DNA from: Schmidtea polychroa
Lineage: Eukaryota
Direction of reading: 5' to 3'
Length of the DNA stretch: 64,000 bases
Assembly (NCBI GenBank): GCA_044892525.1
Contig: CM097885.1
Location: forward strand, 119,040,001-119,104,000
Shown here: piece after piece, positions 9,809-47,200 of the stretch
How positions within the stretch are numbered: position 1 is the first letter of the stretch
Layout: each line of letters opens with the position of its first letter
Position numbers and translations under genes: made by a program
The notes under the pieces: generated by a model
Told to the model about the DNA's origin: nothing
Databases searched by the model: none
The model's input: the letters and a program-made list of their open reading frames with translations, nothing else

Positions 9809-9815
9809 GAATATA

Positions 9816-17894: not shown

Positions 17895-17896
17895 TA

Positions 17897-18866
17897 ATGC
17901 TAAAACAAAAAGCTAATGGCGATTGGAGAGCCTGTGGTGATTACAGACTACTGAATAAAATAACAGAGCCAGACAGCTACCCATTACCTATAATAAAAGA
18001 CATAATAAACCGATTAAACGGCGCTAAATACTTTTTAAAAATTGATATACAAAAGGCATATCATCAGATCCCCATCAGAAAAGAAGACGTAAAAAAACAG
18101 CAATAACAACACCGATAGGAATGTTCGAGTACAATAGAATGCCTTTCGGTCTACGAAATGCCGCAGCAACTTTCCAACGATTCATGGACCAAACAATGAA
18201 AAACAACAAAAACACAATTGCTTACCTAGACGACATTCTAATTACAAGCCCAGATAAAGCAACTCATATAAAAGACGTAGAAAAAGTATTCGAAACGCTG
18301 AACAAAGCAAAATTGAAAATAAACACACAAAAATGTGAATTTTGAAAACAGAAATAAACTTCCTTGGTCACACACTAAACGACAAAGGAACACAACCAAT
18401 TGAAAACAAAATAAACAGCATAAAAAATTACAAACTGCCGACAAACACAAGAGAGTTGAGGAGATTTCTAGGAATGGTAAACTTTTATCATTCTTACATC
18501 CCAAACTGCAGTAAATTACTAGCACCATTAAACGACCTTATCAAAACAAAACGGAATGTCATAATAAACTGGACACAACGAACAACCGAAACTTTCGAGA
18601 AAGCCAAAGAAAGTCTTTCAACGGCAACATTACTCGGTTACCCAGATCCAGAGCTAGATTACCAACTAACAACAGACTGTTCAGGTTTTGCAATGGGCGC
18701 AACAATTTTCCAGGAAAACAAATACGGCAAACAACCACTAGGATTCTTCTCTAAAAAACTAAAATCACACCAAACAAGACACTCAACATTCGACAGAGAA
18801 CTACTGGCAAAACACGAAGCAATCAAACACTTCCAACATTTGCTTGAAGGACGAAACTTCAAAACT
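17897..18866 (+). pseudogene. pol: Internal gypsy RT-RNase H fragment
   Basis: WRACGDYRLLN, MPFGLRNAAATFQR, YLDDILI, FLGMVNFY, TDCSGFAMGA, STFDRELLA; frameshifted, no LTRs. Confidence 0.9.
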
Positions 18867-18869
18867 TCG

Positions 18870-19111
18870 TGTTGCTTTTCTTTAACTGTTTGAAAACTGC
18901 ATAAGATTGCCCTTCAAGTAAAAATGGTATTACATTCATGACATTTTTCACATTCTTGGCTTCCAAAATAATTTCGAGTTTGTCTAACCATTCTTCCACA
19001 TCTGTATTTTTGCCATCGAATTTTTCCAACATTTTCAATTATAATCTTGCTGATTTCCATTTCCCGGATAGCTTGTAAGACTAACCGTTTTTCAAATTCC
19101 ATTTTTACCAC
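18870..19111 (-). pseudogene. Second integrase zinc-finger-like fragment (BEL-like)
   Basis: RNYFGSQECEKCHECN resembles EYWILRAKQCENNCHECK of the neighbouring BEL integrase. Confidence 0.3.
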
Positions 19112-19331: not shown

Positions 19332-19896
19332 GTCAGTGCAACAATGTTATATTCCAACTTTTACAATCCTAATTGAGAACACAAATGTAAAGGAAACATT
19401 AAAAGATGCTGATCAACGAGATGGAAGTCATAGACCCATTAAAATTTGAAATTTAATCAAATCAAGTGAACCTATTACCTGAGTGGCCATTGGAGAAAGA
19501 AATTTCCTAATCAAGAGCAACATTGTAAATCGAACCACCGAGAAAAACGAAGAGAAATCAGTTAAACTGATGTTAAGAAAACTCTTGGAAGAGGTCAGCT
19601 ACCAAATGAAATCCCAACCTTATTTCCGAGAAATCCGATGACCAAAGTAATCTACCAATCATTAACATGCTTACCCTAAAAGATAACTTTATAAAGCAAC
19701 CAGAATCCTAGCCTCAGAAATTCAAAAAGAATAAGAGAAAACAGTCAAATTCTGATAGAGGTAATCCGATGATCATCAGTAAGTATCGCGAGTTAATCAA
19801 AAGAATCAACACCTGAAATCAAATAGTTCTAAACAACCAAACTGAAGGATTGAAAATGGAACGCGCGGTGCAATTTTAACCGTTCCCCGAGTGATT

Positions 19897-22331
19897 TATT
19901 GGGCTATAGCCAAAATATTGAGAACTTGTTTTAATGAATTGGAAATCCTTATCATAAAAACCGCACCAAGATGAATTAAAATCTTTGAATATAAATCAAA
20001 TAATACAAAGTAAAGTATACAATTACTTGTGAATAAATAAAACACATATAATAAAATTGGAAGAACGCAAGGAGTTCCAATAACCAACACAGTTAAGAGT
20101 ATAACAACGCATTTGAAAATCTGCCAACTCGAAAATCAAGTAATAATAAATAAAATAAATAATTAATAATATACATACGAAGAATCATAATCAAATTAAT
20201 TAGGAATGTTATGGTTCGTATTTATATTCAAAGGAGCTGTGACAAAATTGCAGAATTTAAGAAAAAGAACATGAAAAATTTAATTAAAAAGAATAATTAA
20301 AAAGTAATTATAATAAAAATTTCCATTAAAATTGATAAAGAAATAACAAAATGAAATAAAAAATAAAATTATTAAATAATTTATTTGTTTAAAAGCAATT
20401 AAATACAAAATTCATGCAAGTTAAATCTGGCAGCACTCGTGTACATGTGCATAATCAATCAAAATTACATGCATTCTGATTGGACAGTGCAAAAGCGGAC
20501 AACCAAAATCAGTCTAAATACCGACTGAAAATTCATTTTTTCAACTTAAATAAACTTAACTTGCGAACTTAACTTGTATATTTGTTAACTTACTCTCAGT
20601 TTTTCGGAGATTATGAATGTTATGCCTTGGTGTTAATTTTGTTTTCTGTATAATGTAAAGCTTATAAATGTTAACGTGTTATTTAATTTTTGTTCTTTTT
20701 ATTGTTCATTTCTAAAAAACTTAACCATCTTTTCAGAGACAGCCCAAAAATAAGTTTATGCCGATCATTTGGATATTACGGAAAACCTAAAATGGACCTC
20801 TTTGAGGTTTGGGAATCGTTCAGAAACGTCATTATTCAGTCCATCGGTAGATGGCCCAGCGAAGTTTATCGGTATAGACAGTCGAGGCCTTCGGGTGATG
20901 CTACACTAGCCCGACAGGTTGAGTCTTTGTTTGGCGCTCAGAATATTTCAACAGTTATCACTAGGGCAACTTAAATGCCAAAAAATACCAAGATTAAATT
21001 ATGAAGTGTTGATTGAAATACTGGATAGATTTGAAAATGGTGAATTTTCAATACTATTTGGTTACAATTGTTTATCAAATGTATCGTTTTCTTCAGATTC
21101 TTGCGGTATAAAACAGTATATAGCTGTACGATTAGAATCAAATAGCATATCCTCCATTTGTAAACTAGAAAATCCCGAAGTTTCACTGAGTGTATATTCT
21201 ATGTTATTCAACTGTCCGCCAACATCTATTGCAGTGGAGAGGAGATTCTTTATGCTTAAAAAATGTTAGCATTAGATAAAGATTTCAACGATGAAAATTT
21301 ATACACTTATTTTGCATTTTATTTCAATAAGGATAATAATAATTCATCGGTAGAAGATGATGGTTCGGATTTTGAGATGCAATAGGTAGGATAGCTGGCT
21401 TTTTTAACCTTTTATGATTGTTGTATTAATAAACGGTATATCCTTACTATCCATTGTTTATTATTTTTTACTTTTTTTTATACTTAATCTCCTTTTCCTA
21501 ATTGGTTATTCATTGACCAATACTTCTCTTATGTAATTGGCTATTCTCTAACCAATACCATTTTATAAAGTACATCAAAATACATTCAACAAACAAATTA
21601 ATTTTATCCCATATTCATTTGGTAATTTTTTGACAACATATGCCAAATTTTGCCGAAAAAACTCATCAAAAAATTGCTAAATTTGGGTTGCCCTAGTTGT
21701 TACTATTCAGAATCCTGGTAGAACAGAGAGGGCGGATCCTTTTACCTGAGGCCCGCGCAGTGAAATTGGAGAACCCATTAGGAAAGGAAAATGGGCGACC
21801 AAGGAGTCGCCTTAGTGGAGGGAATGGTCGTATTACGAGTGTGTCAGATATTCTGAGAGATAGGTTAGGAAAATTCAAAATCAAACTAAAGCTACATATA
21901 TTATACAATAGATAGGGTAAAAGACTGTCTCGATGAGTCAGCAATAAGATTTAACATAGACCAGGATTAGAATATTTATAAACTTGGAAATAAGAGTGGA
22001 TCCCTGCGTAAAATTTCCGAAGGTAACATTGTAAGTAAGGTGGGCCAGAATAATTTGAATAAGGATAAACGATAATCTAGATAAGGAAGCGACGTAAGAC
22101 CTTCTATTGGCAGTCCTGAACCCAAAAATAAAAAGGAAATGAGGAGTAGTTCTAGTAGTAGAGCTAACCTGCTCATTGATTTTCAGCGACTGTGTACATT
22201 ACCAACATGATTTATGCCATGGGTACACAGATGGTAAAAAGTAAAATATTATGAAGGCGTTTAGGGAAGAATCAATGCCAAATCTATAAGTAATTCTAGA
22301 ACATATAAATGACATACCCTAAGCGCCAACA
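19897..22331 (+). repeat. Large LTR (3' LTR of a truncated element) with nested hAT insertion
   Basis: Starts T(A)TTGGGCT after the same pre-LTR motif as element 4 and ends GCGCCAACA. Has ATTGG plus a TATA-like block near 20480-20520 and shares blocks with the LTR at 61911. Confidence 0.65.
20962..21695 (+). mobile_element. Internally deleted hAT element
   Basis: TIR TAGGGCAAC/GTTGCCCTA; 8-bp flanks GTTATCAC/GTTGTTAC (6/8 match); remnant dimerisation motif PPTSIAVERRFFMLKK. Confidence 0.65.
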
Positions 22332-22790: not shown

Positions 22791-23479
22791 AAATTTTTAG
22801 GAAGAATATTAGTTCAATGTTTTTGGAAAGGGCTCAATTACTATCATTACTATAGTTTTTTATTCAGGGTCTATTAGAACAATTAATGTTAATGAAAATC
22901 GACATCTTAAGGTCGGGTCGGCATGTCGACGAAATATTCATGTCAGGAACCACGTATCTTTGATCTCGTATATAAGCCGTACAACATGTTTTTAGCATAA
23001 TAAACAACTTTGGTTTTTTATAAGCTGTGTCTTATATGTGAAATTTTATGGTAAGGTATAGAACCTAATTTAATTTAAGAAAAATATTTTTCCTCTTAAA
23101 ATAACATATTGTAAATGTAAAAATGAAAATTTTTAGTGTCGAAATATCTTCAAAATTGTCATTTTTGAATATTATTAATTTTATTTCAACAATCACGAAA
23201 TTCCAATTTTATTTTGTTTTTTTATTCAAGTTTTAAGTAATATTTTGAATTATATTCATTTAAATTTCTATTTAGAATAACGTAGCTTAATATTTTATTA
23301 TTGTAATTAAATAAATATAATTGTTCTGTACACATTTCCAGTTTTTGATGCGGATGAATCAGAGTAAACTCAAAATTAACCCTTTTAATAAAATGGATAG
23401 AGACTTTAAATATGATGCTCGTCAATTAATAAAAGTAAAAACATTAACTTAAATTTAATATTCATTCTTAATATTTCAG

Positions 23480-25400
23480 GTTTTTGACAAAGAATCAAAG
23501 TCTTATGTAATTTTCCAAGTTTTATTTTGATATATAAAAATGTGATTTTAGATTTTTAATGTTGTTGACATTAAAATTAAATTATCTCAAGACCGAGTCA
23601 AATTGTATTTAATTAAGAAGTTGGAAGAAAAATTAATAATTGATCTTTGCATGAAGCATACGCTGATTAGTCGAGCAACTGATGCAGCTACTCCGAAAAT
23701 AGATTCTTGTCGATTGATTAGTGATCCAGCTGGCAATGAAGTTTTACTAAATTTTAAAAGTCCATCGATTGCCAATGAATATGAATTAAAATTCTTAGAG
23801 TAAATTAATTCGGTAGATAATATTGTGGTTTTATATTTGATTAGAAGTATGGGAATGTATAATACTACATATGCTAATATCTGTTTTGATGTAAATGTTA
23901 CAAATTTGGTAAACAAGTCATTGAAAGAATCAGCAAATGTTTCGCTATCTGGTTTGACTTTGGGTAAAGACCTAAAATCTTGGATAGAGCAAGAGTTTGT
24001 ATTTCCTGATATACACGTTGGTTTAAATCTAATTTAAAATGAAATATGACTTTGTTTTCTTGTTAAATAGATGCCATGTTATATATTAGAATTACGTGTT
24101 GGAGAAGAGTTGTTAACAATTCGAGGTAAAATATTACCAAAATAATTGAAGAAAGTCTAATTAATTTTACTTTAGATGACACTACTATACTTCAAGTTTA
24201 TGAGCATATTAATTACAGCAACACTAAAGGCCACTGCTTCCTTGGTTGTTTTTATGAAAGCATCAAACCGAACTCGACGCTTTTGATACAAATTAATTTC
24301 TATAATCACACAATTGAGTATGAAAAAGGCCAAATTCCGTATTCAATTGAAGAGAAATGGGGCGTAGGTGAAATGCCAAAATGGTTAACGGTTCGTTTTA
24401 TTGTTTCTTTCTCGGTTTCGAGGAAATTTAGAAGTCTTATTCTAATCGTTTTTTAGAGATTACTATCAGATATATACTATGATGGGCCTGATTCTAAGGG
24501 TGTTTTTCGGTTAAATGCCAAGGATAGTTCATTTTCGAAATGGTACAAACACATGCTTGATTGCGATGATTTTATCATTTCGGAAGATATCTTTAACAAA
24601 GCCGCTATTTTTAAAGTGAATTTATTTTTTAATCCATTTTGATTTAGCCGAATTTTAAATATAGTTTTTTTTGAGAAATATTGAAGGAAGTATAATGACG
24701 AAAAATACGAGAAAACAATTCAACGGTCTGTGTAAAAAATTCATGGAAATCAGTTTTGAAGAATTTTTCAAAAATTCTAAAAGGCAATCAAAATTTATCA
24801 AGTAAGTTTAATTGTTTTGTAAGTTTTAGATTGTTTTAGTGTAAAATTATTCTTCGTTTTTAGATTTATTATATATTAAAATGTTGATAAAAACCATAAT
24901 AATATTTTTATAGATTAATTCAATCTCTTCCAAAACCACATTTTTTTTTATTTCAAAACATCCTTGTTGTCCTCAGTGCTATTATAGATAGCCCAAATAC
25001 AAAAGTTGAGCCATTTGCTATTGCTCGTGCAATTGCTCCCAGTATTTTCCCTTTGGTCAGATTAAACTATTGGGGAAACTTATCGAACTTGTTGGAAGCG
25101 GCTATTTATCTGACAGACAAAATAGTTAAACCAGCAGATAGGAAACGAATTATTGAATCGTATAACAAAGTGAAAATTGAAACCAATAATTTAAAAAGTA
25201 AATTGAATTTTTGTGGTTTTATAATCAAATTTAATATTCCAGATGAAAACAGAATCAATAGTACAACATTTGGTGAAAATGATTCCATGTAAGCGATTTA
25301 TGTTATTTCTTAAATTATGTTTAGATCCTATGGTATATCTAAGAGTTCAGGGCTTCGGTTACCTTCATCTTTTATAGCACTCCGTGTAAATGGGTGATTA
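23480..25400 (+). pseudogene. Possible multi-exon gene of unknown function
   Basis: Several short open stretches bounded by TTTAG acceptors and GTAAG donors (for example an exon at about 24988-25288 ending CAT/GTAAGC); some stops; no family recognised. Confidence 0.3.
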
Positions 25401-25950
25401 TTTCTATAATCATGCATAGATTATAAAATACTAAATATTTTGATAATAATTTTAACCATTTAAGTGTATTTTGAATTAATCAATGATTTATAATAAATCA
25501 AAGAATTAATCGATTCCTAGCTATTATCGAATGTAGTAATAATACGAAATTATTAAATTATATACAGGCCTTTTTGAACGTGTAATTATCAGACACATTG
25601 ACCTGACAAGTTTATTTTAAAAAGTATGTCAGACAAATCGACCTATTATTGTTAGTTAAATGTGTCTGACGACAAAAAATTTATTTATTTATATTTACCT
25701 GTAAAACACTTGTTGTGGTGCGAGCTGTAAAGCACTGTCAGTCAAAAATTGACTGACATGGCACTGAGAGTGCTACGTTAAAAGGGAACATTTTTTGTTT
25801 AAAATGGTAATTTCTGACATTACAACAACTTTATTAAATGTCCTCTTTCCGCATAAAATGTCTTTGGAACACCTCAAAAAACTTTAAATCCTTTAATATC
25901 ATTATATTTAATTAGATTTATTACGAATCTATTTAAAGTCAATTTTTAGA

Positions 25951-26805
25951 ACTTTATCATCAATCACAGAATCCGATAGTAAACTGCAAAATACAATATC
26001 CTCCGACAAACTGTATGATTGCGAATTAGATAAAGATTCGGACCTTGAGAATTTTAGTCAAGATTCCATTTTGTCTGACAATGTGTCGTCGTCGGACATC
26101 GAGAGTGATTCATCAAACAAATCCTGTGATTATCCTAGTGAAGAAAAAATTAAAAATCTGCCCCAAACCAGTTCTGAAAAACAATTAGAAATGGATGAGA
26201 GAAATATCTGTGAAATTGAATCGAATGAAATGATTTCGAAATTCCAAAATTCCAAAAACATTTGCATGGGGTTAAAAATGAAACAAATCTATAGAAGTTG
26301 CAGTAAATTCCAAACTGATTCAGAATTCCAAATCGAAAAGGACAATTTCAAGGAAAAATTGTCACCTGTCTTGAGAAATGAAAAAAAGACTGTCGGCCAA
26401 AGACATAAATCACTAATTCAATCTGATTCGTTGGTAAAAGCATTAGATCGGGACGCTTTTGAATTCAGTGGATCAGATTTCGTTATAGTAAAAGATAACA
26501 TTAAAGAAAATTTTTCCCCAGTCTTAAGAAAAGACATAAAAAATATTGGACAGAGACACAAATCTCTTATTCAACCGGATTCATCGATGAAACCACTAGA
26601 TATCATGTCACCCAAATCAAGCAAAAATGTTAATTCTAGCAGCTCAACGCCAGTAGATTTTCCAGTCAAACGAAAATACAGTCGAAAAGCTTTGTCAGTA
26701 GTTTCTGAACTCAATAATAATAATAATGTTTGTGAGAATAACAATCACCGTAGCCGTTCTCCATATGTTAAAAAACTTATTAAATTATATGAGAATAAAA
26801 AATAA
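25951..26805 (+). CDS. Ser/Lys/Asn-rich low-complexity coding exon with an internal ~51-aa duplication
   Basis: Open from a TTTTTAG acceptor at about 25950 to TAA 26805, followed by AATAAA. KDNFKEKLSPVLR..GQRHKSLIQSDS is repeated as KDNIKENFSPVLR..GQRHKSLIQPDS. Confidence 0.45.
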   Translation, partial: TLSSITESDSKLQNTISSDKLYDCELDKDSDLENFSQDSILSDNVSSSDIESDSSNKSCDYPSEEKIKNLPQTSSEKQLEMDERNICEIESNEMISKFQNSKNICMGLKMKQIYRSCSKFQTDSEFQIEKDNFKEKLSPVLRNEKKTVGQRHKSLIQSDSLVKALDRDAFEFSGSDFVIVKDNIKENFSPVLRKDIKNIGQRHKSLIQPDSSMKPLDIMSPKSSKNVNSSSSTPVDFPVKRKYSRKALSVVSELNNNNNVCENNNHRSRSPYVKKLIKLYENKK

Positions 26806-28330: not shown

Positions 28331-28359
28331 GCCCAGAGATGAGAAAAACGATTATATTT

Positions 28360-29819
28360 CTCTGATCATGAGAAATCAAAGGGACATATGACATCTACTT
28401 TAGAATGGTTCGAGCTGGAAAATAGGCTAACAAAACGATGCACAATTGAAAAACAGAGCCAAAAATTGATAAACAGTGAAAGGCTCGTTGGCATAGTGTA
28501 TTTCAACGCCAAAGGGCCATTGTCCAATTTCTTTCTGAGCACAACATGGCTTTTCATAGTTCAATCGATAAACTACATAAGGCACACAATGGAAATCTTT
28601 TGGGTCTCGTTGAATTGCTGACAAAATTTGATCCGGTTTTGCAGGAACATATACAAAGAATACAAAATGATGAAATTCATGATCACTACTTGGGAAAGCG
28701 AATTCAAAACGAGCTCATTTCGTTGATGGTAAATAAGGTAAGGTAAATTATTGTAAGACGAGTAAAATCTGCTAAATACTTTTCAGTAATATTTGATTGC
28801 ACACCAGACTAAAGTCACCAAGAACAGATGTCAATGACAATTCGCTATGTAAGCCCAGGAGTAGGATATTCTGAAGTAATTCACGAGTACTTCATTCGTT
28901 TTCTAGAAGTAGAAGAAAGTACTGGACAACTCCTGCTTGATATCTTACTATTTGAACCGACAAGATTGGGCTTAGATGTTTCTAATATCCGCGGTCAAGG
29001 ATAAGACAACTGTGCGAACATGAAGGGTCATAGGTCAGGCGTACAGCCCCATCTTTTTTCAATAAAATCTAGAGCATTTTACCCGTTTTACCTGTCACAG
29101 CTACAACTTGCTGCTATGTGATATGGCAATAAATTGTCCTGATGCAATGACGTTTTTTGGTATAATTCAACAAATCTATGTTTTACTTTCTGCTTCAACA
29201 AAACGATGGGCTATCTTTTCCAAGTATGTTCGAAATATTTCAGTAAAACCAGTTTGTGAAACAAATTGGGAAAGCCATGTGGAAAGTGTAAAGGCAGTGC
29301 GATATCAAGCAGGCAAAATCTATGATGCACTTTTCGAAGTTGCAGACCAAAGTAGTAATCCAAAAGCTCGAAGTGAAGCATAGTAAATGTGCAACTTAAG
29401 AACTTCAATTTCATTGTTTCAATTGTCTTTTGGTATGACATATTGTTCCAGTTTAATTACATCAGCAAAGAATTACAAAAGATTTCTGTCGATCTACTAA
29501 CTGAAATTGACATCATGGAACATACTTGCAAATCTTACAGAGATGACTGTTTTGAAACAGCAATAGCAATTGCAAAAGAAATTGCCAAGAACTTAGAAGT
29601 TGGACCCATTTTTAAAGAGACCAGAGTGCGAAAAAGAAAAAAACAATTTACATATGAAGTAGAAGAAAAGTTTCACACTGATTTTTTTAACCAGATTGTT
29701 GATGTTGCAATCATGTCGATTGACAGTCGATTTGAACAACTACGAATGCATCATAACTCGTTTGGATTTTTTTATAAATTTCATCAATTACAAAAAAAGG
29801 ATCTACTGAATTGCAGTAT
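28360..29819 (+). pseudogene. hAT transposase (ZMYM1/DUF4371-type), 5' part
   Basis: HEKSKGH (TTF zinc finger), NGNLLGLVELL, YLGKRIQNELI, YFSVIFDCTPD, EQMS, RGQG*DNCANMKG, TNWESH; several stops. Confidence 0.9.
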
Positions 29820-30848
29820 TGTTGAGGTCTGTAAATTAAAAAGAAATTTAGGTTAATAAGTGAAGAGAAAAGACAAATAAAAGCGGGATCATGCACAGAA
29901 TTGATAGTAAAGGAAAATGTGATGGAAGCAGTATTAGAAAATGCCAAAGCAATTACGAAAGGCGAGAATCCGGAAATCCGAGAAAAATCAATAAAGGGAA
30001 AAATCATCGAAATCGAATGGGAAAAACGGGACAGGTATAGATTAGCTAATGGTCAACAAGATGATGGTTAGGGATTTATCAGAAAAGGGTTAGGAAGGGT
30101 CGAAAAACATTCAAACGTATGGAAACAGAAAACGTTAATTAATTAATTAATTGGCTAATGGAAAACCCGAGCTAATGGGAAACCCGAGCCAATGGAGAAC
30201 CCGAGAGATAAAGGAAACCCGAGCTGGGTAAACAAGAAGAAAGGCAAACAAAAGGAAGATTTGGGCCCATTAGCTTGACACAAAGATTAATGGGAAAAGA
30301 GTAAGGAGAAGATAGCGCGCGTAGGAAGACCGGTAGGGCCATTAATTATCTGGATTCGTTGGACCATTATGGGTGACAGCCGAAGCAAACACGTAGGAGA
30401 AAATGTCAAACGAAAGATTGGCTCGGCAATAACCATTTGTCATCCTGATTTCGAGGAGTATATAAGCAAAGGGAAAATCAGAGAAAATCGGCATTTTGCC
30501 TCAGGTAGGGTAAGAAGAATCGAGAATAGTCGAGAGGTAAAAACGAATTTAGGGAAGTAGGGAAAAGAAGAAATAGAATTAAGAATACGAAAAGGTGAAA
30601 AGGAATCAAACCAAACAGAAACCGAGGAAAACGAGAGTCAAGAGAATCGAAAGGATCGAAAGGTGAATATTATTTGTTTGCAAAGCATCAACGCCTAGCG
30701 GAGAATCGTATAAAACTTTGATTGGTAATTGTAGCGTGATAATAAATTGTGAACCTGTTGTTTCAATATACGTTGGGTTGTTCATTGTTTTGATTTAAAG
30801 AACACAGGAGTCAGAGAGAACCGACTTGAAATAATCCAAAGCCCAACA
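29820..30848 (+). repeat. 5' LTR (1029 bp)
   Basis: Nearly identical to 35120-36149; only three differences spotted by eye. Confidence 0.97.
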
Positions 30849-30855
30849 TATATTC

Positions 30856-30873
30856 TGGTGAGCCCGACGTGAT
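30856..30873 (+). promoter_or_regulatory. Primer binding site, tRNA-Trp
   Basis: TGGTGAGCCCGACGTGAT is complementary to the ...ATCACGTCGGG(G/C)TCACCA 3' end typical of animal tRNA-Trp(CCA). Confidence 0.85.
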
Positions 30874-31160
30874 CGAAAGTCGGCGGAAGGTTACTAAAGT
30901 TAGTGAAAAAGTTAATTATTGGAAAAGTACTAAAGACGTGATTGGAAGTCGGAGGAAAATTATCTAAAGTAGTGGAAAATATTTTTTTGGAAAATAATAC
31001 CGTCGTGATAGAAAGTCGGCAGAAAATTATTGCAAAAATATTTGGGAAAAGAGTACAGACGTGATCTCAGTCGGTGGAGAATAATTGGAAGTAGTTAAAA
31101 AAATGTATTGGAGAATAGTATTGACGAGATAAATATTGAAGGTCATTTTGGAAGATTGAA

Positions 31161-32624
31161 TTGATTAAAGAATTTGATTTAGGAAAAGTAAATTTAAATT
31201 ATTATTTACCGTTTGAATTTTTGCCCAAAGTGAATCGATATAACCTCAGAAGTCAGAAACAAACCCAAATGGCTAGTTGCCAAAAATTACCAGTCAACCA
31301 ATATGGAGGAGACCCTGTTGAGTTCGCTGATTTTATGGACGATTACTATATGTATGCGTCAGCATATGGATGGTCAGAAGAGATAATGGTGCAAAGATTT
31401 CCGTTATATTTGAAAGGAACAGCCAAAGAAGTCTGGAAGCAAATAAATAAGAAAATATTTGAAAATGACTGGAATAAATTAAAAGATACGTTGGAAAGTA
31501 AATTTATATGCCCTGATATTAAAAGGATGACGAAGAAAACATTTTTTCAAAGAATACAAGCATCAGATGAATCCATTAGTGAATATGGGTACACTTTGAT
31601 TTCATTGGCGAGAAAGGCTTTCTCAATAAACTCTGTTAATGATGACATTAATGTTCATAATATTATTATCGATATATTTCTGAAGGGTATCAACAATGAT
31701 TTGAAATCGATGGCTGCTATGTTACAATATGATGATGTGTTTGATTTAATAAAGAAACTTTCAAGTGTTGAAAGAATGATGGATGATTTTAACAAGCTCA
31801 AAGATTATAAGGTCCAATGTTTCAAACAAAATTTTAGAAGTAGTGATTTCCCGTATCATCCGAATGTTTGTTATGGACACTCAAATATTTCTAATGATTT
31901 GAAGACTTTTGATATTGAAATTAATTCTTCCTCGTGTAATTATGAATCTAAAGATCACAGGAGTAATTTAATAGTTAACAAATATAATCCTGTTAGTGAA
32001 TCGAAAGGTAGTGATATCTTTTCGGAAAATGATGATCAAAAAAATTTGAATATTAAAGATAAGTGTCAGCTGTATAGTTGCAGTGTAAAAGATCAAGTTA
32101 CTTACTTAAAGGGTTGTGTGAGAGAAGGCGAATGTATATTTGATGATCATACTCAATTACTTTCAGAAATATCAACGGTCGAAACATTCAATGCGAATTC
32201 ATCGATAGTTCAGACTAATGAAATATCTTATGAAAAAGTGTTGGTTTTGGAAAACATATCTCATTTGAATCTACCAAATTTCAAAAATAATTTGATGCAA
32301 AATACAAACAATAAAGATGAATACAATATGCTCAAAAAATGTGAACTAAATAATGATTCTATATTTATAAATTTGGGTATAATCTATGTCATTCTGAAAT
32401 TGATATGGATCATTTATAAAAAAATAATACAACATTATGCATTTACTGACTCAAGCATGAGGAATTATGCCTGTCTTCCATCATCTTTATATGTCACCGT
32501 AATATATTTAAATTGTGGAAATAAAATTGGATCCAACGGGGAAATAAAAAAGAAAAAAAAATATTCAACATCTAACTTGGACAATATTCATCTTACCCAC
32601 AAACATTCATTCAAACATACATAA
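31161..32624 (+). CDS. gag: Gag (retrotransposon capsid domain) with unrelated C-terminal extension; likely start ATG 31269
   Basis: YGGDPVEFADFMDDY...FPLYLKGTAKEVW...WNKLKDTLESKF...FFQRIQASDESISEYGYTLISLARKAF is a Retrotrans_gag pattern; 487 codons open. Confidence 0.85.
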   Translation: MIKEFDLGKVNLNYYLPFEFLPKVNRYNLRSQKQTQMASCQKLPVNQYGGDPVEFADFMDDYYMYASAYGWSEEIMVQRFPLYLKGTAKEVWKQINKKIFENDWNKLKDTLESKFICPDIKRMTKKTFFQRIQASDESISEYGYTLISLARKAFSINSVNDDINVHNIIIDIFLKGINNDLKSMAAMLQYDDVFDLIKKLSSVERMMDDFNKLKDYKVQCFKQNFRSSDFPYHPNVCYGHSNISNDLKTFDIEINSSSCNYESKDHRSNLIVNKYNPVSESKGSDIFSENDDQKNLNIKDKCQLYSCSVKDQVTYLKGCVREGECIFDDHTQLLSEISTVETFNANSSIVQTNEISYEKVLVLENISHLNLPNFKNNLMQNTNNKDEYNMLKKCELNNDSIFINLGIIYVILKLIWIIYKKIIQHYAFTDSSMRNYACLPSSLYVTVIYLNCGNKIGSNGEIKKKKKYSTSNLDNIHLTHKHSFKHT

Positions 32625-32959
32625 AATAAAATAACGCATGTCTCTTCAAAAAAAAAAGGAAAGCCACTTGGGGATTGCTGTTGGGCGGTTCGGGATCTAT
32701 TGGTCGCTGGTGGGGCCATCTGTGAATTGAGTTTTATCTATAAACAAGAAGTATTAAAACACACGTTTTTGTTAGTCTCACTTTGTGTCGAATTTGAAGT
32801 GGAGGCAAGAGAATTCCAATTGATTGCGACATTTGAGGACGGTGGATTCTGAACCATTTGCTTAGGCGGGGTTCGATTTGGGCGGGAGGCAGTGAATGAG
32901 AAATAATATAGATAAAATTGATTATTTTCATTACAGAATTTATCAATACAAAATTAAAA

Positions 32960-33600
32960 TAAAGAGAATAGAAAAGTTGTCCTTTGGCATTTTTAAGATA
33001 AAAATATTCAAGTTTAGATAAATAATTTGGTACATGAACAGCAATACTCTTGTCTACATCTTCATAGCAAAGTAGTCCACATTTATAATCTGATAAGATG
33101 CGTGCATCATTGACTACCTCGATGTTGGTCGATTCAAAAACGAAACCCAAATAAACATCAAATGGGAAATATTTCACAAACGGAATAGCGTGACTGATTT
33201 TGTTAAAGCTTCTCATTAACAATTATTGTTGAACCGAAAACGTACAGTGGATAAACATCATTGAAATTTTGATCTTTCGACACATACCATCTGCTCCAAT
33301 TCAATCTGTAAGGTATGGCATTGAGATTCCGATGCCCGAATATTGCTAATCTATCAAAGAAATCCAATGACAAATGATAAAGGTTTTTCAAATTGATAAA
33401 AACATCATCATCTATGAAGATAAATCTTTGCTGGCTTATTGAATTCAGACACAAATGAAGCCTCATCCAATATATTTCCGCCATTAACTTTAATGTATTA
33501 TTCAAATAAGTATCTTTGAAATTACTTGAATCATGTCGTTGCTATTTTCCAGCTCTAATTTAATAATGAAAATACTGTACATTGAAATTCCCAATTTAAT
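32960..33600 (-). pseudogene. Captured beta-1,3-galactosyltransferase (GT31, Galactosyl_T-like) fragment
   Basis: NDMIQ..FKDTYLNNTLK, FIDDDVFIN (DxD), PYRLNWSRWYVS, YPLYVFG, FDVYLG, IAVH in GT31 order; frameshifted; no introns apparent. Confidence 0.75.
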
Positions 33601-34039
33601 TAATTGTATCTTACTTTTATATTGTTTTTATTCATTTGGCTGTTAACTAAAATTTTGACTTAGTCGAATTTTTCTATAATTAGGTCATAGAACTATTATC
33701 GACAAAAAAATAATTGAATTGTGTGATCATTTGATCTCGATGGAAATGTTCTTTATTTATTCAGACAAGCTTTTAAATAGGTTTAGTCAAACAAATTAGC
33801 AACTATGGCAACAATAGAGAATTCTTATTCCAGTCCAAAAGAGATACAGAATTAAATACGACAGAGCTTTGGTGTTAGTTGTTTTGCTGGGCTGTAATCT
33901 CTAAATAAATATTTCTCAATCGATTGGCGAAGAAAAGTAACAGGATGCGTTAATGAAATGTGTCTGACTCATGGAATTTGATTCGTCAATTTTTAGTTTA
34001 AATTTTCTGCCCACAAAAATTTCTAGCACACAATTAAAT

Positions 34040-34757
34040 CTGTTTATCTCCATTTCTAGATTATTCATTGCCAATTGTTGCTATTTTTGGAATTCTTGGA
34101 CCTTTAATTAGCCAGTCTGATAAATCTGTTTATCTCCATTTCCAAATTATTCGTTGCCAATTATTGCTATTTTTGGAATTCTTGGACATGTTATCATGAT
34201 TTTGGTATATCTATTTGAACATAAAATGTCAAGATTTTCCAGTTATTGTGTTACAATCTCTAGTACTCATGTTGTGATTTTAATAATGAATTCTCTGATG
34301 GACGATGTATACGGCGTCTTCCTCCAATGCAGTTTTATTCGATTCAGTTACGAAAATTCGTCATTTATCTTTGCTTTTTTGTATCATAACGATTCTGTTG
34401 TTCAATTCACCTCATCTGGAATTTTAGTCAAACACTGCGTAGAAATGTACATTGAAAAACAATACAATTGGTAAAGTTTCAGTTCTCACAAAGTATCATT
34501 CGCCTAAGTTGTGGAGAGCGAGAATTCAAAGAGCCAAATTATTGCCGGGAGACCTACAGAAAAATAATCTTGAAATGAATCGAATTTGCGGACATTTGGC
34601 TTTATATACGGTCTTCCTATTGTTCAGGTTTCCAATGGTTGTTGCGATGTGGATGCGTCATTACAACGGTTGTAATATTTCTGCCAAAGTTTTATCTAGA
34701 TTATTTTTATCAGTTAAAGTTGTTTCATATTCTTTAGATTTCTTATTATATGTTTAA
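34040..34757 (+). pseudogene. Captured rhodopsin-like GPCR fragment (TM1-3 and TM6-7)
   Basis: PIIAIFGILGHVIMILV (TM1), TSSGILVKHCVEMY (TM3/DRY-like), VFLLFRFP (TM6), VSYSLDFLLYV (TM7). TM4-5 are missing and TM1 is tandemly duplicated. Confidence 0.6.
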
Positions 34758-35106
34758 CTAATTTTCGTTGGAGATTTATTAAATATCTCGCTGCACCACT
34801 TTTACACTGTGAGACCATAAGTAAATCGTCTTGTTTATTTAGATTCGAAATTAATGAAGCATGACAGCCGTCAAAAGGTTTGAATGTAGAAATAAAATTA
34901 TAATTTCAGTGATATCTACCCTACCCCAATCAGCATCCACGCCTTCAAACAGATATGTTCGTCAGTGCCCCGTCAAAAAAAAACCGTTTCATAGGCTTCC
35001 GATGTCAAAGTCACCACAGAAGATGAAACAAAAACTGAGTCCAGACAATAATTGTGAAGGGATAATCACATCAAAATGTGGATTTCGAGGACGAAAATTC
35101 TTTTTT

Positions 35107-35119
35107 AAGAGGGGAGATA
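35107..35119 (+). promoter_or_regulatory. Polypurine tract
   Basis: AAGAGGGGAGATA directly before the 3' LTR. Confidence 0.85.
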
Positions 35120-36149
35120 TGTTGAGGTCTGTAAATTAAAAAGAAATTTAGGTTAATAAGTGAAGAGAAAAGACAAATAAAAGCGGGATCATGCACAGAA
35201 TTGATAGTAAAGGAAAATGTGATGGAAGCAGTATTAGAAAATGCCAAAAGCAATTACGAAAGGCGAGAATCCGGAAATCCGAGAAAAATCAATAAAGGGA
35301 AAAATCATCGAAATCGAATGGGAAAAACGGGACAGGTATAGATTAGCTAATGGTCAACAAGATGATGGTTAGGGATTTATCAGAAAAGGGTTAGGAAGGG
35401 TCGAAAAACATTCAAACGTATGGAAACAGAAAACGTTAATTAATTAATTAATTGGCTAATGGAAAACCCGAGCTAATGGGAAACCCGAGCCAATGGAGAA
35501 CCCGAGAGATAAAGGAAACCCGAGCTGGGTAAACAAGAAGAAAGGCAAACAAAAGGAAGATTTGGGCCCATTAGCTTGACACAAAGATTAATGGGAAAAG
35601 AGTAAGGAGAAGATAGCGCGCGTAGGAAGACCGGTAGGGCCATTAATTATCTGGATTCGTTGGACCATTATGGGTGACAGCCGAAGCAAACACGTAGGAG
35701 AAAATGTCAAACGAAAGATTGGCTCGGCAATAACCATTTGTCATCCTGATTTCGAGGAGTATATAAGCAAAGGGAAAATCAGAGAAAATCGGCATTTTGC
35801 CTCAGGTAGGGTAAGAAGAATCGAGAATAGTCGAGAGGTAAAAACGAATTTAGGGAAGTAGGGAAAAGAAGAAATAGAATTAAGAATACGAAAAGGTGAA
35901 AAGGAATCAAACCAAACAGAAACCGAGGAAAACGAGAGTCAAGAGAATCGAAAGGATCGAAAGGTGAATATTATTTGTTTGCAAAGCATCAACGCCGAGC
36001 GGAGAATCGTATAAAACTTTGATTGGTAATTGTAGCGTGATAATAAATTGTGAACCTGTTGTTTCAATATACGTTGAGTTGTTCATTGTTTTGATTTAAA
36101 GAACACAGGAGTCAGAGAGAACCGACTTGAAATAATCCAAAGCCCAACA
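35120..36149 (+). repeat. 3' LTR (1030 bp)
   Basis: Copy of 29820-30848. Confidence 0.97.
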
Positions 36150-36153
36150 GTAT

Positions 36154-36870
36154 GAATCTGGAGAAAAGCTCACAGCCTGCGAAAGTAAAGATCTTGATGG
36201 TTTCATGCTTGCTGAAGATTTGCAATCATTGAGTTCCATAATTCCTGCAGCCACCTACAACGATCCTGTTAAGATTTTGCAGTTTCTGTTAGTAAACAAG
36301 CGCTATAGTGACTTTCCTAACACACACATTGCACTTCGAATACTTCTAACTATTTCTGTCACTGTTGGTTCCGGGGAAAGAAGCTTTTCGAAATTTAAAC
36401 TTATTAAAATATAATATATGCAATATATGCAATCAACAATGATTCAAGATCGGCTTAGTAACTTAGCTATTTTGTCAATCGAGAATGATGTTGCTAAGGA
36501 TCTTGACAATAATGAACTTATTACAGATTTTGCAGCAGTCAAAGCTCGCAAGATTTGCTTGTAAGTTGTAAGTAGAAGATACAACCAAACCAACGCTATA
36601 GTGTATATAGTTTATAATTTAGAGTTATATATGAACTCTTAATTTGCATGTCAAAACAAAACATTTTAATTATTAATTTTTTTTTGAGTTGTATGATCTT
36701 CAATTAAATGAATAAAACTGTAATTATTGATGTGTCAACGCTGTTATAGAATAAAAATTTAAGTATTTTAATTTTTTATTTCCCATTATTTTAATATATG
36801 TAGAAATGTAATTTTTTGCATGGGCCCCGCTCATCATTTGCTGCCTTGGGCCCGCATGCCCTAGGGCCGA
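36154..36870 (+). pseudogene. hAT transposase 3' part (dimerisation domain) and element end
   Basis: FPNTHIALRILLTISVTVGSGERSFSKFKLIK...STMIQDRLSNLAILSIE, stop at 36563; GC-rich subterminal GGGCCCCGCTC...GGGCCCGCATGCCCTAGGGCC. Confidence 0.9.
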
Positions 36871-38745: not shown

Positions 38746-40329
38746 ATGATGGTGATAAGTTTTAATGGTGATAAATTTAATTGATAAATTTAATTAATTT
38801 CTTGATAATTAGTTGTATTTTATTGAATTGTTTTTAAATTTTAAATTAATTTTATTGACAATTAGGTTAATAATTAAGTGATAGAATAAATTTTTGATGA
38901 TAACTTTGTAATATATTTGACTAAATAATGTTTTCAATAATTTTCTAAGAATATTTACACATTGATGAACTTTAAAAAACATAAGCTAAGAAACCAGTTA
39001 ACTTTATCAAGGACTTTAAATTTACTTGATAATTATTGTAGGATACTGAAATTTAGTTTGCTGTTACCGCTTGAAAATGATTGGTTGAATAGCTGAAGAA
39101 TTATGATCAAACAATATATATCATCTCTAGTTAGGTATTTGATGGGTGAAATATTTGTAGGAAATAATGAGTTTATTATGTCTGTTACATAAGTCGACTT
39201 TAGCGTCAAAATGTGTTTTTAAAATATATTTAAATTTTAAAATACCACAACGTAATATATTTTTTCCCTGCCCTTCCATGATTTTGATTGGTTAGTGGGC
39301 TCTTATTATTTAGCTTCTAAATTATTTCAATGGAAGAATATTTGGTGTCTTTAACAGTTAATGAAAAGTTATATTTTTGAAGTTCTTTAAGGATTTTAAG
39401 AGCTGGGATATTGTCGGTGAGATTTAATGAGAGGTCGGTTAAGATGAGAATATATGATTTTTTAAGGGTGATGTTGGTAAAATATCAATGTTTTAAGGGA
39501 AATTGCAATACATTAGTCAGTTATGAATCAATAATAATGTGAAATTATATCGTTTTATTAGGCTGTGATTAATGCACAGTAAATTAATTTAGAACAATGT
39601 TTTATTAAGTAGAGATGATGATCGATTTACTTGGTTTTGACAATGAAATCTTTACAGATAATTGGGATTGATGTCAACTTTAAATTATTTCTCTTTGACA
39701 ATTATTAACTTATTAAAATTTCTATTTAAAATTAGCTTAAAAAATTATTCCATAAAAGTTTCTATTAAAATTTGACTTAAAAAATTATTTCTTAAAAATT
39801 TCATTTTAAATTTTTATTTCTCAGAAGCGGTTGGTTATTCCAACTTTTTGTTAATAAATTTTAATTTAAAGTTTTGAACCTATAATTTAAAAATAAAACA
39901 TTAAGTTACCTATTTATCCTTGTATTACTTTATTTAAAATTTTTTACCATAATTTACAACCAAATATAACCCTTATTTTCATATTTAACCAATAATTTCA
40001 TGTAGTGAATGATTAATTGACAATGATTTGCATCTTTAATTACTATTGAAAAATAATACATAAAAATTTCCATCTAAAATTAACATTGAAAAATAATTCA
40101 TAAAAATTAACTTTAAAAAATAAATTATTTCATTAAAATTTTCATCTAAAATTAACACTGAAAAATATTTCATAAAAATGTATATTAAAAATTATCTTAA
40201 AAAATATTCGTTAAAAATTTTCATTTAAAATTTTCAATTCTCAATCACCAACTATTATTCCAACTTTTTGTAAATAAATTTAAAAATCTAACTTTAATTT
40301 ACTTATTACATTACTTAAATTTACTTATT

Positions 40330-41887: not shown

Positions 41888-44205
41888 AACTCTCAACCAC
41901 CACCTACCCATTAACTAGTTACCATGTACTAACAACTAGGTCTCAAACAACTAAATACTAAACATTTACAACCACATACTAACAACCACCATCAAAACCC
42001 ATCGAGGAATTAACAAATGTCAACCTACAACTAAATACTTACAACCAGATACCTGCTACCAAGTACTTACAATTAGAAACCAAGTACCAACAATCAACTA
42101 ACAACACATAAAAATAATAGCAATTAAATACAAAATATTCTTCATCACATACACTATCTTCTTATCAAAATCTAAAAAGTCAACCAACTACTTACAACCA
42201 ACAACTATGTACTAACAAATTGATCTTTAAAATAAAATACTCGTCACTTGAAAAATTAGATGGAAAATTATTTGAACTCAAGGCATAACTTGGTAAAAAT
42301 TGATTAAATTATTGTAAAAATTTAAATTATTCAAAACATACTAAATAAAAAAATATAATTAATGGACAAGAAAGAACATTAAATTTGAATCATTAAGTCA
42401 CTTGCAAGATTTGTAAGATACTGGATAGTAAATAAAAAATACTAATCATTCAAGTTAATATGAATCAACTAAGATAATAAATTAATAAAATTTTAAAATA
42501 AGATCTAGTAGATAATTGATTTAGATTGAATAAATTAATTGAAATAAAATTAATTTTAATTATTTTTTTAAAAGTAATACATGTACTCAAATTGATTGAC
42601 TGATTGCTCAAAATATTCAAAAAAAACAGTATAAATTCATTACAATTATCAAAGTCAGCAATCTACAATAAAAATAATTATCATTAAATTCCAAAAGAGA
42701 CTAGATAACTAATGATAACATCTAATAAACCAGTAAATTCATTTAAATGACAATAATTGGTATATTCAAGCGAATTCTCTAATAAAATCATCTAAAAAGC
42801 ATCAAATTTCATATATATTCATATATTCCCCTCAAACTAACAAGATTCCTTAAAATCCCTTAAATGACTATATTTCAACCCTTAATTCATATTATTACAA
42901 ATATCATTTAAAAAGCATCAAATTTCCTTGAAATAACTCTATCCTTAAAGATTGATATTTTAATGATAAGTACCCGTAAAAGATCATATATTCCCCTCAG
43001 ACTAATAAGATTGCTTAAAATCCCTTTAAATGACTATAATTCTAACTTTAATTCCTATTATCATACATATTTCACTATTGATAAAACCAGTTACAATTAA
43101 ATTTTTGTTAATCACTGTAAATTTTTTTAAATCATTGTACTCGAAATTTAAAATAAATATAACTGACTAGGTCCCATTGAAAGATTAAATTTATCCATTC
43201 AATAAAATATATTTCTTCAAATGGTCAACTTTTGTCGTTGTCCGTCTAAATAAAGATAAAAATAATTTAAAGTTGACATCAATCCCAATTATCTGTAAAG
43301 ATTTCATTGTCAAAACCAAGTAAATCGATCATCATCTCTACTTAATAAAACATTGTTCTAAATTAATTTACTGTGCATTAATCACAGCCTAATAAAACGA
43401 TATAATTTCACATTATTATTGATTCATAACTGACTAATGTATTGCAATTTCCCTTAAAACATTGATATTTTACCAACATCACCCTTAAAAAATCATATAT
43501 TCTCATCTTAACCGACCTCTCATTAAATCTCACCGACAATATCCCAGCTCTTAAAATCCTTAAAGAACTTCAAAAATATAACTTTTCATTAACTGTTAAA
43601 GACACCAAATATTCTTCCATTGAAATAATTTAGAAGCTAAATAATAAGAGCCCACTAACCAATCAAAATCATGGAAGGGCAGGGAAAAAATATATTACGT
43701 TGTGGTATTTTAAAATTTAAATATATTTTAAAAACACATTTTGACGCTAAAGTCGACTTATGTAACAGACATAATAAACTCATTATTTCCTACAAATATT
43801 TCACCCATCAAATACCTAACTAGAGATGATATATATTGTTTGATCATAATTCTTCAGCTATTCAACCAATCATTTTCAAGCGGTAACAGCAAACTAAATT
43901 TCAGTATCCTACAATAATTATCAAGTAAATTTAAAGTCCTTGATAAAGTTAACTGGTTTCTTAGCTTATGTTTTTTAAAGTTCATCAATGTGTAAATATT
44001 CTTAGAAAATTATTGAAAACATTATTTAGTCAAATATATTACAAAGTTATCATCAAAAATTTATTCTATCACTTAATTATTAACCTAATTGTCAATGAAA
44101 TTAATTTAAAATTTAAAAACAATTCAATAAAATACAACTAATTATCAAGAAATTAATTAAATTTATCAATTAAATTTATCACCATTAATACTTATCACCA
44201 TCACA

Positions 44206-47200
44206 ATGTGCTTAAAAGATAAAACCGGCAGGATATGTAAAATGAACGCGATAATCAGATGTCCAGAGAAAATAATAGTACCAGCAAATTCGCAAATGAT
44301 ATGCCAGATTAAAGTAGATACGGGCATGGAAGGGGAAGTTATTTTCGAACCAAGTAAATCCTTTGAAAAGAGACGAGAGTTACCACTAGCAAGAGAGATA
44401 ATAACAATAAACCAAGAAGGAGTAATACCGATCAACATCACAAATTTCGAAGAGGAAGGCAAAATTATCGATGAAAATGAAAGACTGGGTAAATTGACTC
44501 CAATGATGGATATAGAGTTACCAAAAGTGACCAACGAAACAGCAAAAGATTACGAATTATGGACAATCGACAGTACATTGTTGACTGTCACCGAAAAAGG
44601 AAAATTACACAAGCTATTAGTAGAATATAAAGATATATTTGCCATCTCATATTTAGATTTGGGTACATTTGATGTTACCCTACATGCAATACCACTGATA
44701 GATGAAACTCCAATTGCGTCGAGACCATACAAACTAGCAGAAATGCAAAAAGAAATAGCTGAAGCAGAAGTACAAAAAATGCTAGATGCAAAAGTAATCG
44801 AACCAAGTTGCTCAACCTGGCAGTTTCTAGTGGTCATGGTGAAAAAGAAAGATGGCACGTAAAGATTCTGTATCGACTATCGAAAATTAAACGCAGTAAC
44901 AAAGAGGGATACCTACCCATTACCAGACATCAATGAGATGTTACTTATGTTGCAAGGGGCAGCATATTTTACGTCTTTAGATTTAAAAAGTGGATACTGG
45001 CAGATTAAAGTCAAGGATGAGGACAAAGAAAAGACCGCTTTCACGTTGGGACGAGATCTATATCAGTTCAGAAAAATGCCATTCGGACTGACCAACGCAC
45101 CAGCATCGTTCCAAAGGTGTGTGAACTTCGTCACTCATGGAATCAAACAATGTATGGTATATATTGATGATTTACTAATATATTCAGCGACATTTGAACA
45201 ACATCTGGAGGATATCAGAAATGTATTTATACGCTTACGACAACGGAAACTCGAACTCAAACCTTCAAAATGCGATTGGGCAAAAGAGAAAGTTACGTTC
45301 TTAGGACATATAGTGTCAGCCAAAGGAAAAGAGCCAGATCCACGAAACATCGAAAAAATAAAAACATGCCCAGCACCAAAAACCGTCACGCAAGTGCAAG
45401 AATTCCTAGGATTATGTGGATATTACCGAAAATTCATCAAAAATTATGCAGGAATTGCGAAACCAATCCAAGAATTAGTAAAGAAAGATATCTCGTTCAT
45501 TTGGGAAAAGGAACAGCAAGAGGCATTCGAGACGTTGAGAGATAAATTGATTGAAGCACCAATCCTAGTACACCCATATTTCAAGAAGCCATTTCTATTG
45601 GCAACCGACGCAAGCGGATATGCAGCATGAGCAATTTTAGGACAACTAGATGACGAAGGAAAAGAGAGAGTAATCGGATATTACAGTCGAACGTTCAAAA
45701 AACACGAGAAGAACTATTCAGTAACCGAAAGAGAAGCATTGGCTATAATACAAGCAATCAAACATTTCCGATATTTGCTATGGGGACACGAGATATGCAT
45801 AACCACAGATCATCAACCATTAGTGTGGTTAGGGCAACATAAAGAAGCGTCAAGTAGACTGATGAGATGAGCCATGCATATAAAATTCAAAGCAGGAAGA
45901 GCAAATGCCAATGCCGACTGCATGTCGAGGTTTATTTTCCCAGATTTGGTGGATCAAGAAATGCAACGGATATGTCTAATAGTAGCAGAAGATTTAGATT
46001 TTTGTCAATTACGAAAAGATCAGCAAGAAGATGCAGAATTAAAGCAAATTATTGATTATGTGAAAACGGGAAAACCAGATGTGTATGAGAAAGACCAAAA
46101 ATTAAAAGAACATATGGACAAACACTGACATCGATACGTCATAGAAAAAGATTGGCTGTTGATAATGGATGGAGAAAAGCGATTAATGTGTATACCGGGA
46201 AATAGACGGAAAGATCTATTGACACAATATCACGATGGTAGATTGGGAGGACATATGTCATCAAAAAAGACGTTAGCGAGAATGAAACAGAAATATTTTT
46301 GGCCTACATTAACCGAGGACGTAACAGAATGGGTGAAAAATTGTCTAACTTGTGCAACCAGGAAAAACACTGGATCAAAATGGAAAGCACCGTTAACGCC
46401 AATGCCGGTACCGATAGAACCTATGACGATGATATCGATGGACGTAGTTGGTCCATTACCCGAATCAGATAGAGGAAATGTCTTTATTTTAGTAATTACG
46501 GATTACCTCACGAAATTCCCAGAAGCATTCGCTATGCCAGATCAAAAAGCTAAAACAATCGCAAAAATACTGGTAGAGGAGATATGTTGCCGGTACGGAA
46601 CGCCAAAACAAATACTAACAGATCAAGGAACTAATTTCATGAGTGAAATAATGAGTGAAGTGACTAACTACTTCAAAATCGCAAAGTTGAGAACATCACC
46701 GTATCACCCCCAAACAAACGGGATGACGGAAAGATTCAATGGAACACTCATTCAAATGCTGTCGAATTATGTCGACCGGCACCAACGAGATTGGGACGAA
46801 TATATAAATCTGTGCCTTATGGCGTACAGAATGTCAATACATGCATCTACGAAAATGAGCCCATTCAAATTAATGTACGGAAGAGAATGTAACATGCCAA
46901 TGGACCTGGAATACCAACCACCAATATCGCAATATATGGAGATAGGCGATTACGTCACAAAATTCAAAGAAAGAATGCAGGAGATTTGGGAAACGGCAGG
47001 GTTGAATATCAAGTTTTACCAGGAAAGTTGTAAAGACTTACACGATCGAAAGAAAAATGTGAAACAACATACATTCCAGACAGGCGATTGGGTAATGATA
47101 GAAACACCCGAATTAATTCCAGGAACCACCAAAAAATTACAATGGAATGGAAAAGGGCCATACGAGATTCTATTTGTAGGTGAAACCAACGTGAGAGTAA

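Follow-up and report, generated by a model that had tools for sequence, protein, structure and literature searches.

Several long terminal repeat (LTR) retrotransposons have been described that carry host sequence or that encode Gag alone. In LTR-mediated retrocopies, which are reported from fly, mosquito, zebrafish, chicken and mammals, host sequence replaces the internal open reading frames (ORFs) of an element, some of the chimeras combine two or more parental genes, and re-copying as non-autonomous elements is seen for CG17604_r and CG10212_r, each at several sites (PMC5131818); flatworms fall outside the list of surveyed species in the available part of that paper. TR-GAG is a gag-only element that transposes in Arabidopsis with the help of proteins from related autonomous elements (PMC8704663), and maize Bs1 contains three captured gene segments (PMC13317346). 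Here, we describe a 6.3-kb gypsy-type LTR element (29820-36149) in a 64-kb stretch of the genome of the planarian Schmidtea polychroa (assembly GCA_044892525.1, contig CM097885.1, positions 119,040,001 to 119,104,000), which we refer to as the window and in whose numbering all coordinates are given; one copy in this one window is the evidence base for what follows. From its sequence, we classify the element as a non-autonomous Ty3/gypsy LTR retrotransposon because it has paired LTRs within a target-site duplication (TSD), a primer-binding site (PBS) and a polypurine tract (PPT), no pol domains, and cis signals shared with a related family that has reverse transcriptase (RT), RNase H (RH) and integrase (IN). 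We consider it probable, though far from certain, that the element is an old chimera resembling TR-GAG and Bs1, with gag under selection, that was recently re-copied by helper enzymes.

The tetranucleotide GTAT is present on the + strand at both ends of the element (29816-29819 and 36150-36153), forming a 4-bp TSD (p=0.007 for a chance match of a random pair of 4-mers). A 6-bp TSD was rejected because the two LTRs and the LTR of a related element elsewhere in the window, designated element 1, share an identical CA terminus. The 5′ LTR (29820-30848, +) is 1029 nt long and the 3′ LTR (35120-36149, +) is 1030 nt long, with both running from TG to CA. They differ by 2 substitutions over 1029 bases and one 1-nt indel in a run of A, and each LTR has one private substitution when judged against element 1. 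Within the 5′ LTR are a TATA-like box at 30459 and an AATAAA at 30741. A 7-nt spacer (30849-30855) separates the LTR from a PBS-like 18-mer that starts with TGG (30856-30873, +); the spacer is conserved in element 1 (9815-9809), and the distance between LTR and PBS is usually 1-3 nt. The 18-mer may be tRNA-Trp-like; no tRNA gene was found in the window, and a literature search with the PBS sequence gave no relevant match. The 5′ leader contains a 69-bp tandem repeat in 2.4 copies (30864-31030, +), each unit of which opens with the 3′ half of the PBS, and this repeat is longer than that of element 1. At the other end, a pre-PPT motif and the PPT occupy 35081-35117 (+). The PPT consists of 11 purines (35107-35117) located 2 nt upstream of the 3′ LTR, and the pre-PPT motif is presumably of the kind that is typical for the ends of gypsy ORFs. 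A sequence-only reading of the window had proposed a perfect TSD, near-identical LTRs and an intact PBS and PPT, and all of these features are borne out, with an LTR divergence of 0.19% and with the PBS recognized by its position and TGG start.

On either side, the element is flanked by same-strand remnants of a single hAT transposase. To the left, 28343-29815 (+) contains decayed, stop-bounded transposase pieces with a weak match to DUF4371 (E=0.14), and to the right, the transposase continues at 36154-36565 (+) into its dimerization domain (Dimer_Tnp_hAT, E=2.2e-05). The element is a real insertion into this dead DNA transposon, and the presence of a TSD inside continuous hAT remnants, together with both priming signals, upholds the earlier proposal that the chimera moved as a unit.

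Inside the element, host sequence takes the place of internal ORFs and ends ~30 nt short of the element's own 3′ end. Two cargo pieces lie adjacent to each other in opposite orientation, with an unassigned 370-nt spacer in between. The first (32992-33600, −) is antisense to the element and represents the C-terminal ~60% of a GT31 gene up to its end, as identified by a Galactosyl_T match (PF01762, E=4.8e-08, 33.5 bits against a curated cut-off of 23). It is colinear with GT31 proteins, aligning in three pieces with the unnamed protein P0006 (75/105, 23/32 and 17/27 residues identical), which is perhaps not the parent but a paralog, and alignments with P0156 and P0008 end a few residues short of the C-terminus. 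The piece has 2 frameshifts and a 1-codon deletion, and the N-terminal part of the gene was not detected upstream (p≥0.58 in 9 of 9 tests).

The second cargo piece (33971-35051, +) is in sense orientation and derives from a G protein-coupled receptor (GPCR) similar to SMDGB4, a 410-aa S. mediterranea receptor labeled PROF1 (PMC3261222, supplement file 8). Its start at 33971 is inferred, since the published SMDGB4 protein lacks the N-terminus, and its stop codon is at 35049-35051. The GPCR was missed by Pfam, by a homolog search (0 of 103 candidates, longer proteins) and by a search of PDB sequences (0 matches), and the top match in the ESM Atlas is a GPCR cluster (0.95). Counted by eye, 219 of 264 residues in seven segments are identical to SMDGB4, and the [N/D]F..[Y/F] motif of PROF1 in transmembrane segment (TM) 7 is present. 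The sequence is broken by 3 premature stops, 4 frameshifts and 3 large internal deletions; through the latter, TM3 is lost along with the greater part of TM5 and some of the tail. In addition, the start of TM1 is directly duplicated (34035-34187, +, 86-bp spacing) in copies that differ at 4 of 67 bases. Identity to SMDGB4 is even between the conserved core (178/216) and the C-terminal tail (41/48; Fisher p=0.83), and the number of stops is near expectation, so by sequence the cargo is best described as the copy of a close parent that decayed neutrally. Had it come from an ortholog in a distant species, most of the differences would be expected in the tail. Together with a Burro-like element in the window (see below), the match to SMDGB4 assigns the DNA to S. 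mediterranea or a close relative. While the earlier description of GT31 and GPCR pieces holds for the identity of both genes, the GPCR is no small piece, as it runs nearly whole from start to stop apart from its internal deletions. A low-complexity, S/P/Q/N-rich, exon-like sequence on the − strand (32640-32953) with a candidate in-frame 45-nt GT-AG intron (32764-32720) gave no Pfam match and is a possible third cargo.

This arrangement resembles the LTR-mediated retrocopies, where host sequence from two or more parents lies between two LTRs and the cargo is likewise near the element's own 3′ end (PMC5131818). The published retrocopies were recognized by their missing introns, and most are young and differ little from their parents, whereas the cargo here is ~8% diverged and wrecked inside young LTRs. 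An antisense piece and an open capsid ORF further separate the present element from those retrocopies (PMC5131818).

The open capsid ORF (31269-32624) extends over 451 codons and matches Retrotrans_gag in Pfam (E=7.7e-07). The capsid region comprises amino acids 1-168 (31269-31772, +; PF03732) and is 46-48% identical to P0001-P0004; with P0004, amino acids 2-168 are matched and 79/168 residues are identical. Relative to element 1, gag has an in-frame 48-nt deletion past the start codon, and the 18 codons that the two have in common show 5 synonymous and 0 nonsynonymous differences. A PDB search with the capsid returned only 2 chance matches. The 5 homologs found for the ORF cover just its N-terminal 17-37%, and the capsid is followed by a fused open tail of 283 codons (31773-32624, +) with neither a zinc knuckle nor a protease motif. 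The length of this tail is beyond chance, as no ORF in 2000 shuffles exceeded 135 codons. It contains one hydrophobic stretch (amino acids 364-382), and no homolog was recovered for it: there was no ESM Atlas match, no Pfam family above cut-off, and none of the 5 homologs covers it. An AlphaFold model of the gag-tail ORF from a 5-row alignment had a mean pLDDT of 34.9 and was not informative. A match of the tail to TUNAR was sub-threshold. The tail on a knuckle-less Gag is the sole unexplained feature of the element. Thus, the gag described as open by the sequence-only reading is indeed open over 451 codons, but it is a capsid only, followed by a tail without homologs.

One of the homologs, P0005, is a diacylglycerol-kinase gene model that ends in a gag piece (54/78 residues identical to the present gag family). 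A diacylglycerol-kinase cargo in the element was rejected because P0005 matches gag amino acids 2-79 alone, and, judging from the two sequences, P0005 is probably a chimeric model in which gene prediction merged another insertion.

Searches for the remaining retroviral functions were negative. No zinc knuckle (CHCC or CCHC), protease motif or RT motif is present in six frames of the interior, while 2 of 4 true gag relatives have a zinc knuckle (PF00098, CCHC), and Pfam together with ORF comparison detected no protease, RT, RNase H or integrase in the interior. When the pol and post-pol ORFs of two neighboring gypsy elements were used as queries, none of the 9 matched the interior below E=0.07, and a tenth query, the gag start of element 1, matched the common gag start only. 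The positive control for this search worked, as the ORFs of the two neighboring elements find each other, and the claim that the element has no pol therefore stands.

Priming by tRNA-Trp may be common to the CsRn1 clade and the present element, provided that the PBS is indeed tRNA-Trp-like. A 4-bp TSD is also common to both, but CsRn1 Gag has a CHCC motif whereas the Gag described here is knuckle-less and its relatives are CCHC, and the LTR of PwRn1 is 381 bp compared with ~1 kb in our element (PMC2582038). With no CHCC or CCHC in six frames, the element does not belong with CsRn1. Two LTRs, a single Gag ORF and the lack of pol are shared with TR-GAG, although TR-GAG is known from plants and its Arabidopsis Gag is full-length at 562 aa, while the present element is from an animal and has the capsid only, followed by the tail and host cargo (PMC8704663). 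We suggest that the element works like TR-GAG, and equally like the LTR-mediated retrocopies and Bs1, yet is not a strict TR-GAG member, because its Gag is not full-length. Like Bs1, it is an LTR element with several host-gene segments, none of which is a full ORF; in Bs1, the captured segments make up a chimeric ORF that is translated (PMC13317346), whereas GT31 and the GPCR are broken and not in frame. An in-frame capture is conceivable for the gag tail only. Burro is likewise a planarian gypsy element with host-like domains, but Burro elements exceed 30 kb, encode pol and carry their extra domains as open ORFs (PMC6431247), and the present element, at 6.3 kb with no pol and a dead cargo, is not one of them.

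The family from which helper enzymes could come is represented in the window by element 1 (6240-10862, −), which is defective. Its LTR (10862-9816) has 100 mismatches over 1005 aligned bases to the 5′ LTR of the present element, and the two elements have the same LTR ends, an identical 7-nt spacer and a PBS that differs at one base. Element 1 has the RT-RH-IN domain order of gypsy elements. Almost all of its gag is gone along with the protease region, pol is in at least 6 stop-bounded pieces, and no 3′ LTR was found in the window. Because gag is mostly lost and pol is broken, element 1 cannot itself be the helper and only marks the probable helper family, and an intact helper of the same family would have to be assumed. 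The autonomous partner related to element 1 that had been proposed therefore stands as a family, marked by the shared LTR ends, spacer and PBS, but element 1 is dead. The deletion in element 1 runs from early gag to the pre-RT region, and past its integrase lies an ORF-like sequence (6474-5696) that is interrupted by a gap and has no Pfam match in the tested part. The 4-mer that adjoins element 1 (10863-10866) is the reverse complement of that at 29816-29819, hinting at a target-site preference from two cases only.

We compared the age of the cargo with that of the insertion. In a neutral simulation, the observed 83% identity of the GPCR corresponds to 7.8% nucleotide divergence (5.6-10.3) with 2.75 stops predicted, where 3 are seen, and the LTR divergence corresponds to ~0.1% per lineage. 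The ratio of cargo age to LTR age is ~80 and at least 16. A comparison within the element gave the same order of events, as the duplicated cargo segment differs at 4/67 positions and the LTRs at 2/1029 (Fisher p=1.7e-4). Cargo decay is older than the present insertion, in agreement with the earlier remark that the cargo is decayed while the LTRs are almost identical. All of the frameshifts (6 of 6) fall in the cargo and 0 in gag (p=0.02 by length), where 5.5 would be expected in gag at the rate of the cargo, and an unselected frame of 451 codons would have a 1% chance of staying open at 8% from substitutions alone. Two explanations fit: gag was under selection during the decay of the adjoining cargo, or decay took place elsewhere and the cargo was added late. 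The proposal that capture predates the insertion is thus right with respect to decay, but capture before decay does not strictly follow, since a pseudogene could have been captured late. The earlier description as active transduction was an overstatement, as the capture looks old and just the final copying is recent.

Late capture is an alternative that we regard as unlikely. In this scenario, a young gag-bearing element took up, in one or a few recent rounds, a block of PROF1 and GT31 pseudogenes that had already decayed in the host genome and not in the element, maybe as a one-off copy. Old cargo, young LTRs and an open gag would all be explained without long-term selection, and suitable donors may exist, given that unplaced PROF1-like fragments, possibly pseudogenes, are noted in the S. 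mediterranea genome (PMC3261222). The adjacent pieces in opposite orientation, their 370-nt spacer and the possible intron-bearing piece are also consistent with uptake of a block. Late capture, however, presupposes that SMDGB4 had earlier been duplicated ectopically and that this duplicate was then transcribed or copied, and it leaves unexplained both the loss of the knuckle with gain of a 283-codon tail and the 10% LTR divergence from element 1, which is of the same order as the age of the cargo. Because the open tail replaces the knuckle and because of this LTR distance, we favor an old non-autonomous lineage.

The lesion counts also bear on a local DNA event, in which a normal young element inserted and then had its interior exchanged through ectopic recombination or break repair, or in which an old chimera had its LTRs homogenized by gene conversion. 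In Schmidtea, LTR/Gypsy elements are overrepresented close to breakpoints of synteny, and a role as repair templates has been proposed for them (PMC11410931), and element 1 demonstrates that large internal deletions occur in this LTR family. In an old resident element, however, gag should have decayed, and its 0 frameshifts where 5.5 are expected do not fit; each LTR has a private substitution, and replacement after insertion would still require a donor that was already decayed plus an intact fused ORF. We consider such an event quite improbable.

An assembly artefact is less probable still. Here, the LTR pair would reflect repeat collapse or a foreign interior would have been joined to the LTRs, with some frameshifts being sequencing errors. 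The window contains 4 variable-size gaps, assembly of this genome is known to be difficult, and several of the single-base indels sit in homopolymers. Against this, 19331-63477 is free of gaps and the nearest gap is >10 kb away, the LTRs differ at 3 sites, and the TSD, PBS and PPT are in place. Moreover, gag has 0 indels over 1353 nt compared with ~3 single-base losses over 610 nt in GT31 (p=0.012), and errors cannot yield 17% amino-acid divergence, stops and large deletions. Both a local DNA event and misassembly fit the data worse than an old chimera that was recently re-copied.

For this old chimera, we propose the following course of events. An ancestor in the element 1 family would have lost its nucleocapsid, protease and pol, with host sequence filling their place: the PROF1 GPCR in sense and the end of a GT31 gene in antisense. 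Capture would most likely have occurred by template switching onto co-packaged RNA. The chimera would then have persisted over ~8% neutral divergence, during which selection kept the capsid ORF open and the cargo, as passive filler, decayed, implying repeated copying. Transcription would start from the 5′ LTR, and the RNA would be packaged with Gag-Pol of an intact relative of element 1. The element's own PBS and PPT would prime copying, followed by integration with a 4-bp TSD, and the signals for these steps are in place. The present copy results from a recent round into a dead hAT transposon. Our estimate for this reading covers jointly the template-switch capture, the repeated copying with gag selection and the mobilization by the element 1 family.

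Several points weigh against the proposed history. A single copy underlies it, and a second copy would lie beyond the 64-kb scope of the analysis. The exact gag protein is absent from a collection of 15 billion proteins, in which planarian coverage seems poor, and among the 5 matches to gag none is both full-length and close. A Gag without a zinc knuckle would have no obvious means of binding its own RNA, leaving its selection unexplained. The GT31 piece has 0 in-frame stops in ~200 aligned codons where ~2 would be expected at 8%, so it may be younger than the 8% estimated for the GPCR. That estimate comes from the by-eye comparison with SMDGB4, which covers 264 of 410 residues (400 visible) and excludes positions that overlap frameshifts. 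Capture from RNA and from DNA are indistinguishable because introns are, or may be, absent from the two cargo genes, and PROF1 genes appear to lack them (PMC3261222); the candidate 45-nt intron is antisense and therefore uninformative on an RNA origin.

We speculate about a further possibility, which we hold to be rather doubtful. The element could be a long-lived, multi-copy gypsy parasite whose nucleocapsid-less capsid and 283-residue tail, with its membrane-anchor-like helix, are selected in cis, for example by seeding or hijacking helper particles. It would then be an animal counterpart of TR-GAG and Bs1 with a remodeled Gag, and the PROF1 and antisense GT31 sequences that it carries might enter the piRNA pathway, through which the parent genes could be regulated in trans. 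The idea of trans-silencing is raised because planarian LTR elements are piRNA targets (PMC8532177).

Other features of the window were recorded alongside. A remnant of a giant, Burro-like gypsy element (44161-55250, +) has RT, RNase H, integrase, ankyrin, RING and MATH domains, including a separate 478-aa RING/MATH (TRAF-like) ORF, and its 5′ part is cut off at an inverted-repeat element. The inverted repeats in question (38747-39690 and 43260-44203) are 944 nt long, 99.8% identical and flank AT-rich tandem arrays in which no ORF of 120 aa was found; the unit is either a foldback-type element or an assembly feature. At 17088-18893, two retroelement fragments lie back to back, one integrase-like (−) and one with RT/RNase H (+), and the integrase-like piece appears Pao-like by eye and has no Pfam match. 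An exon-like region with short introns (23460-26805, +) ends in a 297-aa ORF without a Pfam match and is probably a host gene or pseudogene. A perfect inverted repeat of 47 nt, with 39 nt between its arms, is present at 14268-14400, and two dispersed repeat pairs are found at 22091-22273 and 63246-63428 (78% identity) and at 19896-20172 and 61910-62168 (69% identity). An Rfam search returned a single chance match (E=0.71), and a phage tblastn search returned zero matches.

Together, the element is a well-formed example of a capture process known from animals and plants, in a new lineage and with a named parent gene. No report of a planarian non-autonomous LTR element bearing cargo was found in the literature searched, a search with most subscription papers and Repbase outside its scope. 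With it, planarians join the lineages in which LTR-mediated gene capture and non-autonomous elements with gag alone are known. Since SMDGB4 is the named parent, public S. mediterranea assemblies offer a way to date the capture and to check its junctions. No new gene results, because the cargo is dead. Such copies would account for some of the PROF1-like fragments and could inflate counts of GPCR and GT31 genes.

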